NCBI GenBank assembly: GCA_963832165.1
Contig: CAWHTE010000005.1
Location: forward strand, 160,001-224,000
Reading direction: 5' to 3'
DNA: 64,000 nucleotides
Source: an uncultured delta proteobacterium
Lineage (GTDB): Bacteria; Myxococcota_A; UBA9160; SMWR01
Of this stretch, positions 34,061-43,606 are shown piece after piece. Position numbers and translations under genes: made by a program. Each line of letters starts with the position of its first letter. Position 1 is the first letter of the stretch. The notes under the pieces were generated by a model. It had not been told where the DNA came from. It ran no database searches and saw only the letters and a list, made by a program, of their open reading frames with translations.

Positions 34061-34088
34061 TGGCGTCCCCAACGGGAGTCGAACCCGT
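34061..34088 (-). repeat. att copy: duplicated 3' end of tRNA-Glu
   Basis: tggcgtccccaacgggagtcgaacccgt identical to 43531-43558. Confidence 0.97.
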
Positions 34089-34113
34089 TGGGTTTCTCCG
34101 CAACCGCTTGCAA

Positions 34114-34362
34114 TCACGACTCTTTCCTCCGCGCGAGGTTGTGACGGGTTTGTGACGGTCGCCGCGCTAGGTGGCGCACCAGCAGCGCTCGTAGAAAATC
34201 GCTCGGCGACTCGTCGCCCGTGGCGTCTTCCAACGCCCGCGCCTCATTGGCGGTCAGGTTCACCGTCACCCGTATCTTGCGCCGCTCGCCGGGAGGGAGA
34301 GGCTTCCGACCCGATCCGGGCCTCGGTCCTCCCCACTCGCCTTTGGTTTTGCGACGCATCAA
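34114..34362 (-). CDS. Small DNA-binding protein (GGxRPGSGRK motif plus ribbon-helix-helix-like region)
   Basis: WGGPRPGSGRKP..RVTVNLT..EARAL..PSDFLRALL. Confidence 0.65.
   Translation of the reverse strand: MMRRKTKGEWGGPRPGSGRKPLPPGERRKIRVTVNLTANEARALEDATGDESPSDFLRALLVRHLARRPSQTRHNLARRKES
34139..34158 (+). promoter_or_regulatory. Putative integrase arm-type sites, left
   Basis: TTGTGACGG twice, 11-bp period. Confidence 0.6.
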
Positions 34363-34502
34363 ACCATCTTACGGGCTCACTGCTCTCGCCGCCACAGGCG
34401 CGGCTCGAACCACCGGGGCCACTGATTCGCCCACCACCCGTCGTGCGGCGAGCGCGTGTTCGGCGAGATCGTTCCGGGCGGTCGAGAGCGCGGCCGCTCC
34501 GT

Positions 34503-35157
34503 TCATGCGTCCAGCGTCGTCTCCCCGCTCTCGTCCCCGTCCTCGCCCGCAACGCCGGTTTCGCAGGTCGGGTAGCCGCGCAGCCGCTGTGCCTCCATCG
34601 CGATCCGTTTCGCCATGCCGTCACCACCGAGAGACTCGATGACAGCCCGAGAACAAGAACAACCACGTGCGCGCGTGCGGCAACGAAACACGGATCCTTG
34701 TTCTCGGGGTCTCCGGGTGCCGGAGGCAGCACCGGCATCCCATAGAGGACGCGGAACATCATCTCGTCGCCATCGATCCCAGACTCGCGGCGGTACTCGT
34801 CGGCGCTCACGATGTACTCGGCCACTGAGATCGCGCTCGGGTCCCTCCGTGCAGATCGACGTTCCACCAGAATGGCTGCGCGAAGCCCATCATCAGTGAA
34901 GTGAGCCACTCGGCCGCGGCATCGGGGATCAGGAACCGGCCCTTGCCGCGCCGCTGCGAATCCTCCGCCAGCTGACGGGCGCGCCACTGTGCAACCTCGT
35001 GCAGCCGAAAGAGGTAGTCGCTCCTTCCGTTTCTCCGCCGCTCGTGCGGACAGCCGCGGCGAACCCAGTTGTCAACCGTTACCAGGCTCACGCCGTACTC
35101 ACGCGCCAGGTCGGAGCGGTTGTAGGTCAACTCGCTCTCGTCTTCCGTCCCGCTCAT
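34503..35157 (-). CDS. Lambda Nu1/TerS-like winged-HTH protein (Rpp-like?), probably frameshifted
   Basis: YNRSDLAREYGVSLVTVDNWVRRGCP..YLFRLHEVAQWR resembles the Nu1 N-terminal HTH; C-terminal extent is inferred across frames. Confidence 0.6.
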
Positions 35158-35199
35158 ATAAACAACCCCCTAGCGGCTGCAGTGCCTAGGCCGATCGGG

Positions 35200-35241
35200 C
35201 GCGGTGCCCGACTCCGCAAGCAAGGACTCCAGGAAGGACCC
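35200..35241 (-). other. Lambda-like cosQ-cosN packaging site
   Basis: Minus strand GGGTCCT-N15-TTGCG-GAGTCGGGCAC-CGCG, 42 bp upstream of the Nu1-like start. Confidence 0.6.
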
Positions 35242-35312
35242 GCGAAGTCTATGTGCTACGGAAAGCGTAGCACCTGGAGCGCTTCGCTCGGGGTCGCCGG
35301 TCCTTTTGGAAT

Positions 35313-35380
35313 CCGGCCTCCGCGGGGCTGGAACTTTCCCACAGGCCGCTAAGGCGGAGGCCGGTCAGCTGCAGCGCCTT
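35313..35380 (-). other. Truncated attC (L'' plus terminal hairpin), interrupted by IS; its R'' lies at 36918-36924
   Basis: Removing the IS gives GCCTAACAAGGCGCTGCAGCTGACCGGCCTCCGC..GCGGAGGCCGG; L'/R' missing. Confidence 0.8.
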
Positions 35381-35399
35381 CCATAGTAGGCGATGTCAA

Positions 35400-35715
35400 G
35401 AGCATGGTACTCCGTTATTCGACCTAGCGGCGTCGAACGTCCAGGCATCATTCGATCGATCGGCACCGTACGGGTCCATCCGCCATCCTCCTCCGCGTTC
35501 TCCTCGGGCCGTGAAGCGTGCGGGCTTGCGAACCATGCTTCCATCGGGGCCTCGAAGGCCATCGCTTCATTCGGTCCTGCGAGGGGGCATATCCTTGTTA
35601 TTGGGCCTGCAACCGCAGTCGCGGCCACGCGTTGGCACGGATGCTTCCCCTCGACCCTGTGCCCCGGAGATCCAGATCTCGCTGTAGCAGACGATGCTCC
35701 GTCGATGCAGAGCGA
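35400..35715 (-). ncRNA. Candidate bridge/seek RNA in the IS 3' non-coding end (boundaries approximate)
   Basis: Target match CCTTGTTA (35593-35600), AAGGC (35555-35559), donor match CTTCCAT (35538-35544). Confidence 0.65.
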
Positions 35716-36771
35716 TCAGTGGGTGACGAGATTGTGGATCTTCCCGGGGTCGTACTCCTCCTGTGTCTTCCACATGGCCAGCACGATCGCGGCGATCTGC
35801 CGCGCCACCGTGAGCTTGGCCAGGTTCGGCTTCGTGCCGTTCTCGAGCTGCCGGTCGTAGCCCTCGCGCAGCGGATTCGGTCCGCAGTGCGCGACGACGG
35901 TCGTGGCCGCGCCCTTGAAGATCGCTTTGAGCATCCGGTTGTGGTTGAAGTTCAAACCGCGCGTCTGCACGACCCGAGCCTTCACCCATCGGCCCTGGTC
36001 CTGCACCCAGTCGCTCGACGACCGCATCACGACCCCAAAGCCACAGTAGGCCCAAAACTGCCGCTTGGTGCGGAAGCGGTACGGGGTCACCACGATCGGC
36101 AGCATCTGCGCGACCCGGATCGGACCGAGCCCGGGCGCAGTCTCGAGGATCCGCGCGATCCGATGCCGATGCGACTCGCGCAGCATCGCCGCTTCCGCTT
36201 CGGCCTTGAGCGCTTCGAGCTGATCGAGCTCGCGTCCCAGGAGCTCGACGGCTTCCCGTGTCGCCGGCGGCAGCGCCTGCGCACGCTTCGCCCGTTCCTC
36301 GAGCTTGTACAGCGCGTCGCCCGCACACGGCAGGCCGCGAGACCGAAAGAAGCTCTTCAGTCGACTCTTCACCCGCGCCACGTCCCGGGTCACCATCGTG
36401 TACGTCCGAGCCCGATCGCGCAACGCCGTGAAGAGCTTCGCGTCCTTGTACACCGGCCGCTTGATCCCCCCGGTGCGCAGCTTCTCCGCGAGCCCATGCG
36501 CGTCGATCGCGTCGCTCTTCTGGCCCGGCTTCCACTCACCGCGGTACACGACGAGCTCGTCCACATGGGGCGAGAGGATCTCGTAGAGCCACTGGCTCCA
36601 CTCGCCTTCCTCGATGCACAAGTGCAGATTCCCCGCGAACGATTGGAGGTAGCCCACGAGCGCCTTCCCATTCGTCTCCACCACGTCGCGCCGGATCTGC
36701 TTCCCCGACGCATCCAACCCGCAGAACGTGACACTCGCGGCGTGCACGTCGGCTCCGAGATAGCGTTCCAT
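35716..36771 (-). CDS. IS110-family transposase/recombinase
   Basis: YLGADVH, CIEEG, KSDAIDA (DEDD RuvC); TAPGLGP, FWAYCGF..RSSS; RBS AAGGAGG. Confidence 0.95.
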   Translation of the reverse strand: MERYLGADVHAASVTFCGLDASGKQIRRDVVETNGKALVGYLQSFAGNLHLCIEEGEWSQWLYEILSPHVDELVVYRGEWKPGQKSDAIDAHGLAEKLRTGGIKRPVYKDAKLFTALRDRARTYTMVTRDVARVKSRLKSFFRSRGLPCAGDALYKLEERAKRAQALPPATREAVELLGRELDQLEALKAEAEAAMLRESHRHRIARILETAPGLGPIRVAQMLPIVVTPYRFRTKRQFWAYCGFGVVMRSSSDWVQDQGRWVKARVVQTRGLNFNHNRMLKAIFKGAATTVVAHCGPNPLREGYDRQLENGTKPNLAKLTVARQIAAIVLAMWKTQEEYDPGKIHNLVTH

Positions 36772-36918
36772 TGCGGTCCTCCTTCGTTGGGCGTCCATGC
36801 CCAGGTCGTGTTTCAACCCGAAGCATGTCCCCAGCGGAGGAGACCGCCACCGCGCCTCGATGCTGCCTTCCCATGCAGCGCGCCTCGATCGAGGACGTGA
36901 CCTACTTATGATCCCTTG

Positions 36919-37455
36919 TTAGGCCGCGGCCAGCTCGCCAGCTCGGCCATGGGTAAGCAGCTCGCGGAAGCTCTCAGGAACGTGTGCAACCAGTTGCGAG
37001 CGAAGATGCCAGAGGCCGTTTCGCCCAACCTGGACATCCGCGGCCGCAAGGAAGAGAGTTTGTATGTGAACTGGCGGATCGCCAGAGACCGTGCAGATCG
37101 AAACGATTGTGGCGGTTGAGATAGAACGCGGAGTTGTGATAGGGGGGACATACTCGCGCGAGGCGACCATCGTTCTTGAGCGAGCCTGTCCGTCGCCGAT
37201 TTCGAATGCGACTTGGATGTCGCGACCGCCCGAGTCGTAGTGCCCGAGAAACAGCCGGACGGGATGCCCCCCGGGAGCACCACGCTCGGACTTGCACCAG
37301 GAAACCTTGCCAGCTCGGATGACGAAGGACACCGCAACGATCGGTTCGGATGCGGCCGCTGTACCGCGCCAGTCGCGAACCGCCGCTGGAAGCCAAGCGC
37401 CTGTGAGGGCGACGTCGAGCCGTCGACAGGCATCGGATTGGAACGCATCCAGCAT
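36919..37455 (-). CDS. Integron cassette 3: hypothetical protein
   Basis: Stop TAA lies inside the R'' GCCTAAC; ATG 15 bp after the R' core. Confidence 0.65.
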   Translation of the reverse strand: MLDAFQSDACRRLDVALTGAWLPAAVRDWRGTAAASEPIVAVSFVIRAGKVSWCKSERGAPGGHPVRLFLGHYDSGGRDIQVAFEIGDGQARSRTMVASREYVPPITTPRSISTATIVSICTVSGDPPVHIQTLFLAAADVQVGRNGLWHLRSQLVAHVPESFRELLTHGRAGELAAA

Positions 37456-37470
37456 GATTCTCTTGCCGCG

Positions 37471-37595
37471 GCCTAACGGATCGGCGTTGAGCTGCCGGCC
37501 GCTGACCGATTCGCGACGGCTCTCAACGCTCGCCGCCAGAATGCTACCACCGTTCGGAAGGGCGCAGGACGGTCAGCTCCAACGCCTTGTTGGGC
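37471..37595 (-). other. attC site (125 bp)
   Basis: Minus strand GCCCAACAAGGCGTTGGAGCTGACC...GGCAGCTCAACGCCGATCCGTTAGGC. Confidence 0.92.
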
Positions 37596-37622
37596 AGCGC
37601 CTAGCGCATCTAGACAAGGACG

Positions 37623-38003
37623 CTACCGAAGCAGTGCATCAAGGTCGTCCCGCCAGGGATGCCGGTCCGGAGCTGCCCACTCCCCACTTGGCGGTGGAAA
37701 GTTCGAACGAGCGTAGGCGCACCTTGTAGAGAAGTCGACCACCGCGTAGAGGCGGTCGTTGATGAAAAGGCCGGCCTTCTGGCCGTCTGGAGACCAGACG
37801 ACGCGCACGATCGCCTCGTGGTGATTATCGGCAAACTGGGACGCCTTGTAGATCTGGACCGCGTCTAGGATTGAACCGCGTTCGCGATCGTGTGCGTAGA
37901 AGTAGCCCGATTCGCCGTCGTCTTCGAACACAACACTCACGGGCGAACTCGGTGAGTCGCTCGCGAACCACGCTTCTTTGCCTGGTGTGAGGTGCTCAAG
38001 CAT
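37623..38003 (-). CDS. Integron cassette 2: DUF2251-like protein
   Basis: VVFEDDGESGYFYA..ILDAVQIY..WSPDG.KA.L.IN..YAVVDF..RSNFPPP. Confidence 0.8.
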   Translation of the reverse strand: MLEHLTPGKEAWFASDSPSSPVSVVFEDDGESGYFYAHDRERGSILDAVQIYKASQFADNHHEAIVRVVWSPDGQKAGLFINDRLYAVVDFSTRCAYARSNFPPPSGEWAAPDRHPWRDDLDALLR

Positions 38004-38011
38004 TCGGCGCT

Positions 38012-38171
38012 GCCCAACGGATCGGCGCTCAGCTGCGAGCGCGCTGACCGCGATGTTACAACACGGCGCCACGCCGCCAGACCGCAAGAGCCGCTGGCGA
38101 GGCGAAGCGAGCCCAAGCGGCGATGCCACGAGAATCCACTGGCGCTCGGCAGCTGCAGCGCCTTGTTGGGC
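38012..38171 (-). other. attC site (160 bp)
   Basis: Minus strand GCCCAACAAGGCGCTGCAGCTGCCGAGCGC...GCGCTCGCAGCTGAGCGCCGATCCGTTGGGC. Confidence 0.92.
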
Positions 38172-38192
38172 GGCGTGCTGCCATTCAACAGC

Positions 38193-38837
38193 TCATCTCG
38201 CGAGCGATTGAACTCGCTGCAGCATCTCAACTCGATCTTTCGTGGTCGGGGGGACAAGCTTGCTGTCCGCTACGAATGCGGGTGCCCCGTGTCCAATAAC
38301 GAACCTCGTCCCGAATCTTACCCGCGGGTTGTACTCCAGTACTTCGACTTTGGTTCGGGTGGGACCATCATCCCGTAGATGGATGATGAAGTCGCAGTGA
38401 AATGGCAGAGGCTTTCCAGATGCCGTGTATTCGGAATACCACTCCATAGCACCATTAAGGAAGATATCGTGCTTTCTCGCCTCGGCCGAAAGGCGACGGT
38501 ATCGGTCCATCGCAGGGTCATCCTTACTGTTACGACTTGGAGGCGGCCAAGTATTCTCGTCTGTCGGAACGAAATTACCAAGTGAAAATGACCTGTATTC
38601 GAGGTGCGGGGTTACTAGCGACCTGCCGGGAAGGCGAACAGTAGCTCTGTCCACCAACTTCTCGCCTAGCGCACCATCGCGGATCTTCGCCGAGACGTCG
38701 GCAAGACTTAGCGGGACGACGCCCTCAACGAAATCTCTGGTTTCAGCGGCTTGCCGCTCAACCTCCCCCCCGCAGGAGAAAAGGAGCGGCAGAAGAGCGA
38801 TCAGTAGTTCCTTGCGCTCCATACGCAGCTTTCGCAT
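38193..38837 (-). CDS. Integron cassette 1: hypothetical lipoprotein (start uncertain)
   Basis: MERKELLIALLPLLFSC lipobox; visibly more AT-rich than host genes. Confidence 0.7.
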   Translation of the reverse strand: MRKLRMERKELLIALLPLLFSCGGEVERQAAETRDFVEGVVPLSLADVSAKIRDGALGEKLVDRATVRLPGRSLVTPHLEYRSFSLGNFVPTDENTWPPPSRNSKDDPAMDRYRRLSAEARKHDIFLNGAMEWYSEYTASGKPLPFHCDFIIHLRDDGPTRTKVEVLEYNPRVRFGTRFVIGHGAPAFVADSKLVPPTTKDRVEMLQRVQSLAR

Positions 38838-38918
38838 CTGCGGCAAGCAGGCCGAGAACACTACGGAGGCAATCAATCCGAACCCTCGAGCGCAATTTGG
38901 TGGTGTTCCATTCACGCC

Positions 38919-38985
38919 GCCCAACTACTAATGGATTGCGCTCCCCCAACAGCAAACGCTGCGAGAGCTTGCAGCCTATTGTACC
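38919..38985 (-). promoter_or_regulatory. attI-like site with possible Pc -10
   Basis: Core GTTGGGC not preceded by an attC palindrome; second GTTGGGG 25 bp upstream; TACAAT at 38983-38978. Confidence 0.6.
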
Positions 38986-39403
38986 GGCGGTTGTGGGGAG
39001 CGGTCGCAGAATCGCGGGGTTTGGGCGGGAGTCGAGTCCAATTAGGCTGCGAGATTTCGCAGGATAAGAGGGAGACGGGCGCGGGGGGCGGTCGCAGCTC
39101 TCGGTTCTCGCAGCCTATGTCGATGTTCGTTGCGGGCATCCGGCGTCGAAGCTCGCGACGGAGCACGTGAATCGCGTGACTGGAGCGGCGGCAAAGGCTG
39201 CGAGGCGATGGACGCATCCACGTGATCCGCAGCGGTGGACGAATCGTCCGGCGTGGGCAGCCGCGAGCGAAGCGGGGCGGCGAGACGCAGGATCGCAGGC
39301 GACCACTCGATCAGTGCAGGTCGCCCGGTTGCGTCGATCGCGAGCACGAACGGCGCGCAGCCACTTTCGAGGCGGAGCGGCCCCAGGATGCGGCCTCGAA
39401 TCC

Positions 39404-39500
39404 GGTGCGGCTGGTGCAGCCGGTGCTGCCTTCCACATCCTTTTCCCTGCGCGCGTGGGGGGGAGTTAGCGAGAGCTGCACCACCTGCACCGCGTGCACC
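39404..39500. repeat. Iteron-like repeats, putative replication origin
   Basis: GGTGC at 39404/39413/39422 and TGCACC at 39477/39486/39495. Confidence 0.65.
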
Positions 39501-39513
39501 TTGGCCCTGGTAG

Positions 39514-41032
39514 TCATCGGGTCCTCACCCCCTTGAATCCTCGAACACCGCCGTGCTGCGCCGTCTCTTCGAGGTCGGGGTTCTGGCGCAGCCGCTCGTA
39601 CACGGCCTCGGCGCGCAGTGGGAAGCGGTGCCCGTTGTCCGCGCACCATATTCGATAGCTCGCGTACAGCGCCGTTCGCGGCGTCACGGCCTGCGCGTGC
39701 TCAGCGAGCAGCGATCGTCGAGCCACCCGGCCACTGAGTCGAGTTGCCGCCGATAGTCGCCACCTGCATCGCGCACGGCCTTCGGTAGCTCGAAGCGCCC
39801 GCGTTCGATGAGTCGGCGCAGGGCATCGACGGCCGCCACGAGCAACCCCTCAAGCTCAGCCTGCGTCGTCAACTTCGCGACGAGGTAGGGGTCACGCTTC
39901 TCGGGGGCGATCACGCTCTGCATCGGGACCACGATCCAGCGCTCGAACGACGCTTCGCTCTGGTCCCTGGAGTACGGCGCTTCGTTCGCCGAGAAGATCG
40001 GCAGCGCGAAGCTCGTGAACGAAAACGGCTGGCCGTACTTCCGCTCGGCGTAGATCGCGTCGCCGCCGGTCATCATCTTAAACACGTCGGTGCGCTCGAT
40101 TGCCCTGGCGTCGAGGTCGCCGCAGACGTTTGCCAACTTTCCATAGAGCGCGGCGGCGGCAAAGCGAGACTCGGAGAATAGTTGCAGCGGTACCGAGGCG
40201 ACGTTCGCCGCTCCGAGCAGCGCGCGGATGATCGAGAGCAACACCAACTTGCCGTTTCGACCCGGCCCGAGGAGCAGCACCGCGGTGTGCAGCGAAAGAT
40301 CCGCGAGCAGCGCGTATCCGATGATCTCCAGCACGAGCTGCACGGTCGGCTCGTCGGGCAGCACATCTCCGAGGAAGGCTTCGATCCGCATACAGCAGGA
40401 GTGCACGTGCCACTCGATCGGGATCTGGATCGCGCTGCGGTGCTCAGGTGTGTGCGGGCGCAATTCACCGGTGCGCCAGTCGAGCAGCCCGTTGCGGACG
40501 TTGAGAAATTGCTCAGGTGGACGGTGCGGGATCGTTGGCGCTTCAGACGCAGCCACGAGATCACTTCGTCGGAATGCCGCCGCTTGAACTTCTGGCCCAA
40601 CCGGTCGCGCACCCAGGCGCGCGCGTGCTGCTCGCCGTCGGCGACGTAGACGCCATCGCTGTAGCGATACAGCCGATCGTCGTCGCCGAGGGCGAGATGA
40701 TGTTCGCGTTTGAGCAGGACGCCTGCGCGCGATGGGGTGAATCCGCTCTCGCCGAAGAACTCACCACCCGCGGTACTGCCATTGGCAGTAGATCGTGCCC
40801 CGGCGGTTCGCGAGCACAGCTCACCGAGCCCGAGCGCGTCGAGATGTTCCGAATCCGATCTCCCACAACCGCAGAGCAGAACAACGCCACCATCGCGACC
40901 CGCGCGGGCGGCCATCCAAGGCGGTGCGCCGTCTTCGAGTGGACACCGAGCGCGTCCGCTCGGGTCGAGCCCGCCGAGCCCAGCATCTTCGAGCGCGACG
41001 TGGACGCGGTCGATCGCGGCCGCCGCCGTCAT
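39514..41032 (-). CDS. P4/D5-family SF3 helicase with N-terminal Zn-finger-like domain, two frameshifts
   Basis: NVRNGLLDWRTGELRPH, GPGRNGK, LYGKLAN, FKMMTGGD..AERKY, IFSAN; C-terminal LYASYRIWCADNG. Confidence 0.88.
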
Positions 41033-41217
41033 TCGCCCGGCTCCGCCGTCGCCTCGGACGCGACGAGCCGCACCGGCCTCTCAAGACGCGCCAGACGCCG
41101 CCGTTCGAGCGCGGCCAGCTCCGACGCAAGGCGCTGGACCACTTTGGGGTCGTCCGAGCGGCCGAGGATGCGGACGCCACCGCCCAGGACGGACTCGATC
41201 AGTAGAGCCTCGCGCAT
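41029..41217 (-). CDS. Small hypothetical protein coupled to the helicase
   Basis: 62 aa, ATGA overlap with the helicase start. Confidence 0.5.
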   Translation of the reverse strand: MREALLIESVLGGGVRILGRSDDPKVVQRLASELAALERRRLARLERPVRLVASEATAEPGE

Positions 41218-41265
41218 GGGTTCCGACCTCCTGCCCGTCTACTCCGAGCCAGGAGGTGTTTGCGC

Positions 41266-42162
41266 TTACACGGCCCTACGAAATTTCGCGCGGATCCGAC
41301 CGAGGTGGACGCGAACGGTGGATGACGCGAGCCCGACGTGCTCGGCAGCAGCCTCGCTCTCGCCACCGTTCTCGTACATCGCGGCGACGATCTCGCGTTC
41401 GCGAGGGCTGAGCGCGGTGGCTGAACGGGCGCACTGGATTTGCAATTCCACCTCGCGATCCGACGCGGGGAGGTCCTCGACGTTTAGATCGGTGTGGGGA
41501 CGGTCCATCATCTCGCGAACGTCCCGCCGAACGATTGAAAACACGGCGTCAGCGAGCGCCTTCCGAAAACGCGGATTCTCGCGGCGGCAGAGATGGAATG
41601 GAAGCGAACCGACCTTCGCGGCCGCCTCGGGGGTCGCCGCCAGTACCAGCTCCCGCCGCAGCTCCTCCCGCTGGCGTCCCTCACGGATCGCAATTCGCCA
41701 GAGTGCGCGCTTCACCTCCGCGCGCGCATCGGGGTGTCCGTGGAACCCACCGAAAGCATTTGCAATCCATGCATCTGCAATCCATTCCGCCGCCAGATCG
41801 CGCGCATCGTCTGCGTAGGGCCATCCGCCGCGGTGCCGCATCGCACGAGCGGACCACGCCAGGTCTGGCTCCGCCGGAGTCTTCGCCTCCTCAACGTAGC
41901 CCTCCGCCATCCTGACGGTCTGTGCGGCCGCCTCGAAGTCCAAGGATGCGAGTACCGCGCGTAGCGCCTCTTGGGCCACATCCAGCATCGGCTGGAGCGT
42001 GCGCATAATCGCGCGGTACTGGCGATCGTGTTCGGCCACTAGTTCGCGCACGTGTTGCACGAGCCACGGCGGCGGCAGAACGTCACACGCTCGCTCTCCG
42101 ACGGGAGCGTCGGGCGCTGCAAGGATCTCGGCGGCCGTCAGTAGTCGAATCGCCTCACTCAC
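41266..42162 (-). CDS. Regulator with C-terminal sigma70-r4/LuxR-type HTH
   Basis: LSPREREIV..AAEHVGLASSTVRVHLGRIRAK. Confidence 0.7.
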   Translation of the reverse strand: MSEAIRLLTAAEILAAPDAPVGERACDVLPPPWLVQHVRELVAEHDRQYRAIMRTLQPMLDVAQEALRAVLASLDFEAAAQTVRMAEGYVEEAKTPAEPDLAWSARAMRHRGGWPYADDARDLAAEWIADAWIANAFGGFHGHPDARAEVKRALWRIAIREGRQREELRRELVLAATPEAAAKVGSLPFHLCRRENPRFRKALADAVFSIVRRDVREMMDRPHTDLNVEDLPASDREVELQIQCARSATALSPREREIVAAMYENGGESEAAAEHVGLASSTVRVHLGRIRAKFRRAV

Positions 42163-42173
42163 CCGTGGAAATC

Positions 42174-43325
42174 CTACTGCGCTCGCGAACGTCGCGCGAT
42201 TTCGAGCATCCCTTGGTCGAGTCGATTCGCGTAGCGCCGCGTGCTGCGAGAGTCGGCGTGCCCGAGGTAGTCGCGAACGGCGCGCTCGTTCTTGGTCCGC
42301 TCCATCGCTTCGGTTGCGAACGTGTGCTTAGTGCCCTCGTACAGCTTCACCGGCTTCGGCAGCCCGGCCTCGGTGCACGCGGCCGTCCACCGCTCGCGGA
42401 GCTGCCAGTGGGACCAGCGCCGACCCGATCGGGGGTTCGGGAGCAGCACCGCACCAGGATCGGCCGCGAGGCGCTTCTCGGCGGGCCAGCGTGCCTCGAT
42501 CCATGCGGCCACCAGCTCGGGCACCGGCACATCGCGATTGCGGCGCGTCTTCGTCGGGCCGACGCGCGCGCTCGGACCGGGACCCTGCACTGCCTTCGTG
42601 ATCGAGAGCCGCGGCGGATCGCCGGGGCGGTAGTCGGCGACGGTGAGCGCGCGAACCTCGCCGGGACGCAGCCCCATGAACGCCATCGCCAGGTGCGCGC
42701 CGCGGTCGGCTTCGGGGATCGCATCGAGGATCGCCTGTTGCGTCGCAGGCGAGAGAATCGTCGGCGTGTAGTTGGCCTGGGCGACGTGCGGGAACGCGGG
42801 AACCTCGCGCAACGTGCGCTGGCGCTGGCACCAGCGCAGGAACGCGCGAAATGCGCCGAGCACGTGTCGGCGCGTCTTGGGCGTAGAGCGCGCGTTCCTT
42901 CGCCATCCACAGCGACCACGATTCGAGCGCGCCCTCGGTGACTTCCGTCAATCCGCGCGCGCCCGACCACGCCACCTCCCCGCCCTTCCGGCCGTAGCGT
43001 CGATACTCGCGCACGGTGAGCGGGCTCCGATCGCCGATCTGAACGAGCCCGTCCATGTGTTCGAGCCAGCCCGTGTAGCGGTTGGCGATGCGGTGAATGT
43101 CGGCGACGACGGGCAGGAACTCCGAGACCGCTTCCTCCCGCGGCGTCCCCTGCGCGATCTTCACGCGGATCACGTTGAGCACAGCCTCGGCCATCGCTCG
43201 GTTGTCGCGCGAACGACACACCGGCGAGCCCGTGGATCCACCCGAAGGGCCTCGCGTCGATGCGCCAGCGCTGACCGTCCGACGTGCGCCGGACCTCACG
43301 ACAGCTTCCGGTCCCCGCGCGCCAT
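42174..43325 (-). CDS. Tyrosine recombinase (phage-type integrase), frameshifted
   Basis: GLRPGEVRAL, TKT, KHTFAT, LGHADSRSTRRY; N-terminal domains in adjacent frames. Confidence 0.88.
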
Positions 43326-43473
43326 CACGAGCACCGCGAGCATGTGCTCGGATTCGGTGCGAAGGCGGAAAGCGTCCATGCCTTCCGACTCCGCGCCGCG
43401 AGCGGATTTCGTTTACAGCGAACGCAACCGGTGCCGATCCCGTTGGGGCTCAACCCGGAGGAAGGGCTCCGAC

Positions 43474-43493
43474 TTGTGACGCAGTTGTGATGG
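43474..43493 (+). promoter_or_regulatory. Putative integrase arm-type sites, right
   Basis: TTGTGACGC and TTGTGATGG, 11-bp period. Confidence 0.6.
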
Positions 43494-43530
43494 CCGTAGG
43501 TGGGTGTAACTAACTGAAATGCGTGCTATT

Positions 43531-43606
43531 TGGCGTCCCCAACGGGAGTCGAACCCGTGTCGCCGCCTTGAAAGGGCGGTGTCCTAGGCCTCTAGACGAT
43601 GGGGAC
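43531..43606 (-). tRNA. tRNA-Glu(TTC)
   Basis: GTCCCCATCGTCTAGAGGCCTAGGACACCGCCCTTTCAAGGCGGCGACACGGGTTCGACTCCCGTTGGGGACGCCA, 76 nt with CCA. Confidence 0.98.

Follow-up and report, generated by a model that had tools for sequence, protein, structure and literature searches.

The element, its transposase, and the attC-like surroundings

The window, that is, the whole stretch of 64,000 nucleotides analyzed here, contains an insertion sequence that interrupts an attC-like recombination site. The features of this locus are the following.

35378-36914, minus strand: IS110-family element of the IS1111 type, 1537 bp (1.54 kb) with the AG core counted once; its left end opens with GGATCATAAGTAGG and its right end closes with CCTACTATGGA plus AG
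35719-36771, minus strand: transposase/recombinase gene, intact, 351 amino acids, DEDD type
35394-35399, minus strand: perfect TTGACA in the right end
35530-35653, minus strand: structured core of the putative guide RNA, with helices P1 to P6 around two internal loops (model R1, 150.4 bits)
36915-36923, minus strand: left half of the target, an attC R''-like CCTAAC followed by A and then the AG core
35350-35379, minus strand: AG core and right half of the target, GCGCUGCAGCUGACCGGCC, an attC L''-like arm
38170-38012, 37594-37471, and from 36923 (the interrupted site), minus strand: three attC-like sites in a row, with spacings of 541-576 nt
37623-38129: open reading frame (ORF) between attC-like sites, DUF2251
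36906-37448: ORF between attC-like sites, no family

A second copy of the element is located on contig C7 of the same genome. In the alignment of the two copies the identity is 99.6% across 1579 nt and stops within the flanks, each copy lying inside its own attC-like site. The ends were placed by aligning both copies with about 50 relatives, whose ends are homologous; the ends of the relatives were anchored on motifs picked by eye, which replaced an inverted-repeat finder that was too noisy. The left junction reads ...GCCTAACA-AG-GGATCATAAGTAGG... and the right junction ...CCTACTATGGA-AG-GCGCTGCAG..., AG being the core common to both. They agree with the junctions given in an earlier first-pass annotation of this DNA, namely, ...GGCCTAACAAGG|GATCATAAG... 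on the left and ...CCTACTATGGAAGG|CGCTGCAG... on the right. Two properties of the IS1111 group are evident in this arrangement: (i) the noncoding DNA around the transposase gene is longer downstream (~340 nt, 35718-35378) than upstream (~143 nt, 36914-36772), and (ii) there are sub-terminal inverted repeats, CATAAGTAGG at the left end and CCTACTATGG at the right end, which at 9 bp, with a 1-nt indel permitted, fall within the 7-17 bp of the group and recur as the same pattern in the relatives.

A motif search found TTGACA, followed by the inverted repeat and AT[AG]GA, in 53 of the 69 RNA-bearing loci described below. From the spacing in the sequence, the junction of an excised circle would place TTGACA 17 nt ahead of the GATCAT of the left end, and TTGACA is probably the -35 box of a promoter formed only at this junction. 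In the integrated element, a promoter scan found none, and a terminator scan returned one terminator-like site, on the opposite strand and at chance level. A hairpin-forming stretch (GGACGTTCGAC...GTCGAA; 35442-35418, minus strand) lies between the RNA core and TTGACA and recurs in relatives; this stretch might form the 3' portion of a longer precursor, act as a terminator lacking a T-run, or serve as a protein site.

The transposase has the domain composition of the IS110 family, with an N-terminal DEDD/RuvC-like domain (Pfam DEDD_Tnp_IS110, PF01548; 39.5 bits, cutoff 29) and a C-terminal Transposase_20 domain (PF02371; 37.4 bits, cutoff 21.3), and D8, E54/E55, D87, and D90 are invariant among 19 relatives. 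The NCBIfam model NF033542 ("IS110 family RNA-guided transposase") aligned with residues 4-338 of 351 at 112.9 bits, below its curated cutoff of 140, a score that, as judged from sequence, marks a divergent IS110 member and not a different fold. The C-terminal G--P----SG motif reads GF-V----SS (G244...S252 S253), its Pro and Gly being replaced. S252 aligned with the Ser of the ESG motif of IS621, which we take to be the catalytic Ser of that enzyme. A PDB search with the transposase sequence alone returned no match; a profile built from its relatives matched IS621 (8wt6, E 4.4e-12) and ISCro4. The closest IS110-family gene on 72,556 plasmids was at most 28% identical, and the hosts of the relatives are soil metagenome-assembled genomes labelled Gemmatimonadota, Acidobacteriota, and "delta proteobacterium." A midpoint-rooted FastTree phylogeny of 45 transposases suggests that AUAACAAGG guides fall in one crown group, a few members of which bear altered guides; a distant clade includes members reading GCCUAAC. 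Stop codons were noted inside the transposase frame of the relatives L010 (1), L035 (2), L039 (12), and L069 (2), all of which retain the RNA structure.

Both copies are inserted at a fixed place of their attC-like sites, after (G)CCTAACA-AG. The sites share (Y)YTAACAAG, an R''-like GCCTAAC, paired arms, and ...GATCCGTTRGGC. The L'/R' half of the attC is absent at the window copy. At the C7 copy, the right flank continues via paired arms to ...CAGCTGAGCGCC-GATCC-GTTGGGC, and this site, as read from its letters, has the layout of an attC, with GCCTAAC as the R''-like box, L''/L' arms that contain an extra base, and GTTRRRY as the R'-like box. A pattern search identified an attC-like 3' end 78-134 nt past the insertion point in 10 of the 18 relatives with AACAAG guides versus 2 of the 33 others. 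At least three further AACAAG-guide relatives bear such an end by eye that the pattern missed, and three more relatives lie beside attC-like flanks at loose ends of soil contigs. The 3'-end pattern was used in place of two attC hairpin tests (ungapped 12-mer; exact 7-mer), which missed even obvious attC sites because these carry extrahelical bases. Similarly, DNA folding of the site at 37594-37471 gave a minimum-energy fold without the canonical R''/R' pairing, which was instead read directly.

The genome contains small clusters of attC-like sites on five contigs, and an uninterrupted site is present at C2:366791. An integron integrase (IntI) was not found in this genome, which is 89% complete (TIGR02249, best score 72.6 bits versus a cutoff of 265), and we take its small IntI-less clusters to be "CALIN-like." At one further locus (L004; contig C2, about 367,890-368,010), ...CTTGACGAGGCTGGCCTTCTCATGGAAGG stands in front of an attC-like site that is intact in other respects. 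It resembles a degraded right end (TTGAC, inverted repeat, ATGGAAGG) left by a related element whose remainder has been lost; the covariance model gives no match there. In the window, the element and the attC cluster are located inside a 9.47-kb island (34061-43606) with a perfect direct repeat of 28 nt at its two boundaries (34061-34088 and 43531-43558); this repeat corresponds to the 3' end of a tRNA-Glu(TTC) gene (43531-43606, minus strand). Genes of the island encode a Phage_integrase-family protein (42174-42863), a sigma70_r4/LuxR-type protein (41266-42162), a D5_N/DUF5906 primase-like protein (39684-40556), and an HTH_17 protein (34807-35157), and the island looks like an integrative element bearing gene cassettes.

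A conserved structure in the downstream noncoding end

The first-pass annotation had proposed that the 3' noncoding end of this IS1111-type element contains a guide RNA within 35400-35715. The comparative analysis located a structured core inside this interval, at 35653-35530, which is composed of the following parts.

35653-35647 with 35586-35580, minus strand: P1
35644-35641 with 35590-35587, minus strand: P2
35640-35627, minus strand: target loop, 5' side (CCGUGCCAACGCGU), right-target guide (RTG) by position
35626-35623 with 35607-35604, minus strand: P3
35622-35609, minus strand: P4 hairpin
35603-35591, minus strand: target loop, 3' side (CAAUAACAAGGAU), left-target guide (LTG)
35577-35573 with 35534-35530, minus strand: P5
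35572-35561, minus strand: donor loop, 5' side (GAAUGAAGCGAU), with AUGAAGC at 35570-35564 as a weak candidate for the right-donor guide (RDG)
35560-35548, minus strand: P6, apical hairpin of the donor loop (GGCC UUCGA GGCC)
35547-35535, minus strand: donor loop, 3' side (CCGAUGGAAGCAU), left-donor guide (LDG)

Searches with nhmmer retrieved the conserved downstream block at 65 places among the loci of the relatives, which reduced to 57 distinct segments. The seed alignment contains 36 of these; the 21 omitted were either truncated (3) or distant or with long insertions (18). Six helices were read from the alignment. In the seed, 94.1% of the pair cells were paired, compared with at most 49.3% when partners were slid, and 15 of the 31 pairs had changed on both sides; none of 500 shuffles did as well. 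A seventh short helix in the donor loop (columns 97-99 with 134-136) was dropped before model building because 11 and 8 of its 36 cells were unpaired. The resulting covariance model, R1, gave 69 matches in 93 sources, among them sequences outside the seed that adjoin transposases just ~40% identical, and exactly 2 matches in the genome of the window, one in each element copy. Among the 61 distinct R1 rows, 94.2% of the cells were paired versus at most 49.5% with slid partners, and 20 of the 28 pairs showed compensatory changes (observed values matched by 0 of 500 shuffles), in an alignment that favors the structure because it was fitted to the model. The four pairs of P6 were paired in 100% of the cells, and three of them had changed on both sides; the helices of the second loop (helices 3 and 4) were 97.3% and 100% paired, with three pairs each changed on both sides. 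The alignment, covariance model, and covariation analysis suggested in the first-pass annotation thus revealed both this compensatory change and, as detailed below, guides that track flanks and ends. The structure, its conservation, and the covariation of the guides with flanks and ends are features of the aligned sequences themselves.

Folded as a single sequence, the whole 344-nt end was no more stable than its shuffles (z = +0.54), and the comparative structure was missed; the proposed structure thus rests on comparison with relatives and not on the single-sequence fold. A scan of 34800-37400 against Rfam, with E values up to 10, returned only a chance match to a viral family (E 6.8). R1 did not match the annotated ISSso6 element of an Escherichia coli plasmid (best E 0.57), which is a poor stand-in for ISEc11 because its transposase has 375 amino acids. 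As to soil sequencing data, four runs from two studies contained 5-10% of the sampled words. From soil libraries labelled as RNA, contigs of roughly 90%-identical relatives were assembled, with gaps over 36256-36515; they gave no evidence of transcription, RNA ends, or strand and may be DNA.

Guides, target flanks, and element ends

The guides follow the order RTG-LTG-RDG-LDG, with the complement of the top strand 5' of the complement of the bottom strand, as is characteristic of the IS1111 group. The first-pass annotation had instead read the order LTG-RTG-LDG from three strings, all of which are present where it had placed them on the minus strand: TAACAAGG at 35600-35593, GCCTT at 35559-35555, and ATGGAAG at 35544-35538. 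Two of its assignments hold, since the first string lies within the 3' side of the target loop and is the LTG, and the third lies within the 3' side of the donor loop and is the LDG. The assignment of GCCUU as the RTG was mistaken. This 5-mer sits in the P6 helix (GGCC, 35560-35557), which is 100% paired, and in its loop (35556-35552), whose letters vary without relation to the right flank; the real RTG is the 5' side of the first loop (35640-35627). A location of the matches in paired stems, which the annotation had named as evidence against its own reading, was thus found for GCCUU alone, the LTG and LDG being sides of loops.

The chance occurrence of the strings was assessed in 20,000 simulated 344-nt sequences of the same first-order composition. 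The P values were 0.001 for the 8-mer, 0.037 for the 7-mer (ATGGAAG occurs twice in the simulated range, one copy being the element's own right end), and about 0.15 for the 5-mer; the two longer matches therefore exceed chance, and the 5-mer does not. That all three are chance matches in a noncoding end devoid of guide function has a negligible probability: GCCUU is indeed expected by chance and is no guide, but the two longer strings also covary with flanks and ends in the relatives (0 of 10,000 permutations), and for these two the chance explanation is already refuted.

Covariation was quantified by permutation tests of 10,000 permutations each, with the ends fixed beforehand from motifs and the guide/flank registers from a few examples; composition is controlled for by the permutations, but the choice of ends and registers is not. 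A number of results were obtained. (i) For the LTG, the 3' side of the target loop was compared in a fixed register with the left flank plus core; over 37 unique of 46 pairs, 235 of 333 positions were identical, compared with 129.8 ± 8.9 in the permutations, none of which reached the observed value. (ii) For the RTG, the 5' side of the first loop was compared with the core plus right flank; over 46 unique of 52 pairs, the complementarity total was 288.5 versus 171.8 ± 8.5, again reached by 0 of 10,000. (iii) For the LDG, over 27 unique of 53 pairs, 177 of 243 positions were identical to the right end plus core, compared with 152.7 ± 4.1 (0 of 10,000); few classes underlie this covariation, since there is little variation in the right end. 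The LDG nevertheless tracks divergent right ends: ACGCAAG in L016 matches the right end of that element, and AUAGAAC and AUAGAAU occur in the distant clade. (iv) For the RDG, over 36 unique of 45 pairs, the total was 124.5 versus 113.4 ± 3.4, and 6 of 10,000 permutations reached it; the match is mainly AUGA pairing with the TCAT of the left end and extends over just 4-7 nt. Covariation with target and donor is thus strong for three of the four guides. The right-donor guide of this element is weak, in line with the first-pass annotation, which had seen no convincing candidate.

Individual relatives illustrate how the guides follow their flanks. The left guide of L013 is UGUAAGG and its left flank TGTAAGG; L014 has the left guide UCCAUAGAC and the left flank TCCATAGAC; and the left guides of L052 (AGCGAAGG) and L084 (GGGGCAC) equal their left flanks. 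Perfect runs between the RTG and the right flank were observed in L019 (11 of 11), L075 (11 of 11), and L076 (10 of 10). In the window copy, read directly, the RTG in the family register (CAACGCGU, 35634-35627) pairs with the flank AGGCGCTG at just 6 of 8 positions, and its best ungapped run, GUGCC with GGCGC, falls outside that register. In attC-targeting members the RTG mostly ends in GU, where CU would complement the AG core. This recurrent G opposite the core G could mean that attC is read in a folded or otherwise unusual form rather than as a plain duplex.

L024 and L026 did not fit the pattern (left guide, 2 of 9 and 1 of 9; right guide score, 3), and their ends may be misplaced. In a clade with AACCUGG guides (L043, L044, L047, and L048), both 3' loop sides carry UGG, the left flank is AGG in 3 of the 3 loci that have one, and the right junctions are heterogeneous between loci; core or register may differ in this clade.

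Proposed mechanism, alternatives, and relation to known systems

We consider it very probable that the 3' noncoding end encodes a guide RNA of ~125-140 nt, the two loops of which read target and donor for the DEDD/Ser recombinase. The 3' side of the target loop (AAUAACAAGG) equals the left target plus the AG core and, having this sequence, would pair with the bottom strand. It spells the TAAC-AAG of the attC-like site, which bears out the proposal of the first-pass annotation that the RNA is aimed at attC; the site hit would be the R''-to-L'' end of the attC-like recombination sites of gene cassettes. The donor loop would read the junction at which the two ends meet in the excised circle: its 3' side (GAUGGAAG) equals the right end plus core, and its 5' side offers just a short match to the left end (AUGA with TCAT). 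The RNA-bound recombinase would then join the circle junction with the target, strands being exchanged at the AG core. For the production of the RNA, its binding by the protein, and the chemistry, we argue by analogy with ISKpn4, ISEc11, and IS621.

Two alternatives concern the nature of the conserved segments and the extent of the working RNA. It is highly improbable that the segments are DNA sites, either for transposase binding or as copies of the target captured by imprecise excision, with no guide RNA being made. Compensatory change at 20 of the 28 pairs speaks for selection acting on a strand that folds on itself, even though the single-sequence fold was no better than shuffles and the soil RNA-labelled libraries gave no transcript evidence, both of which would agree with a DNA role. 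The end does carry DNA signals as well, namely, the sub-terminal inverted repeat and the conserved TTGACA; the two sides of one loop, however, follow opposite target strands, which fits RNA-DNA pairing and not a captured target copy. Moreover, the passages of PMC11187229 on ISKpn4, ISEc11, and ISPa11 describe the same layout as yielding RNAs that copurify with the transposase.

We regard it as unlikely, to a lesser degree, that the working RNA is the first loop alone, a seekRNA of ~80 nt, with the protein recognizing the ends through the inverted repeats and the second loop being no donor guide. The second loop is conserved and paired as well as the first (97.3% and 100%), and its 3' side follows the differing right ends of L016 and of the distant clade; these observations outweigh, in our opinion, the weak right-donor guide and the small variation of the right end and LDG, whose covariation derives from few classes. 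A size argument for the shorter RNA comes from Siddiquee et al. 2024 (PMC11187229), in whose purification data for IS1111 members the predominant RNAs measured 82-96 nt.

IS1111 members are said to target attC, reportedly in print since 2008-2009 in work by Tetu & Holmes (2008) and Post & Hall (2009). For the attC-targeting members ISKpn4 and ISPst6, the sections of Siddiquee et al. 2024 (PMC11187229) on these elements report RNAs, purified with the transposases, whose sequences come from downstream of tnp and correspond to the attC target on both strands; a guide RNA of an attC-targeting IS1111 element is therefore of a known kind. According to the same sections, the guide order of IS1111 seekRNAs is reversed, with the top-strand complement 5' of the bottom-strand complement, the bridge RNA of IS621 having the opposite order in the corresponding part of PMC11208160. 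The element is, with good support, a further instance of this mechanism, which was described in 2024, and it comes from a divergent lineage; its guide RNA leaves the mechanism unchanged.

The comparison with individual systems can be summarized as follows. (i) The element resembles ISKpn4, ISPst6, and ISPa25, as far as their published outlines go, in that the sequence for the RNA follows the transposase gene, both target strands are matched by short segments with the top-strand complement placed 5', the target is one end of cassette attC sites, the inverted repeats are sub-terminal, and the transposase has ~350 amino acids. It differs from them in its transposase, which is at most 28% identical to plasmid IS110-family genes and scores under the NCBIfam cutoff, and in its hosts, which are soil metagenome-assembled genomes instead of gammaproteobacterial plasmids. 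(ii) With IS621, in the features covered by the relevant parts of PMC11208160 and by structure 8wt6, it shares a homologous recombinase and two internal loops, the first for the target and the second for the donor, each reading both strands around a 2-nt core. Unlike in IS621, the RNA lies in the right end (the left end in IS621), the loop sides are swapped, with the top strand read by the 5' side, the core is AG (CT in IS621), the inverted repeats are long, and the right-donor guide is much weaker. (iii) The general layout and guide order, compared by description, are those of ISEc11 and ISPa11, IS1111-family members with seekRNAs shown in PMC11187229, whose targets are given there as a short linear site and REP hairpins, respectively, unlike the target here.

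Few IS1111-type guide RNAs have a known layout, and the element adds to them a family of 61 distinct sequences (69 places) that is supported by covariation and lies outside Rfam. This family provides a natural series of retargeted guides on one scaffold, covering attC and at least 10 other sites, which is useful for deriving the pairing rules of IS1111-type recombinases, less explored than IS621. With respect to integron biology, RNA-guided elements would be invading arrays of gene cassettes in soil phyla remote from the clinical integrons in which such elements were first described.

As to the origin of this specificity, one possibility, which we put forward tentatively, is that a deep-branching IS1111-like lineage, not closely related to the classical IS1111-attC group, reached attC R'' by guide rewriting. 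Some members of the crown group that bears the AUAACAAGG guide would then have since drifted to other targets (AUAGGAAGG, AAGCGAAGG), and a second clade, just 40% identical, would read GCCUAAC and cut three bases earlier.

Two minor observations concern the LTG 8-mer TAACAAGG. It is also present in the genome of the window at C3:363547, within GTCGTAACAAGGTAGCCGTA, which we take to belong to 16S rRNA, in its conserved 3' region; at this site there is no fit of the right-target guide. In two metagenome relatives, at L038:1946-2063 and L032:1156-1257, the homology of the RNA gene ends exactly after the 8-mer, with unrelated sequence beyond, and these breaks may be rearrangements at that spot because the guide-encoding DNA is itself a half-target.
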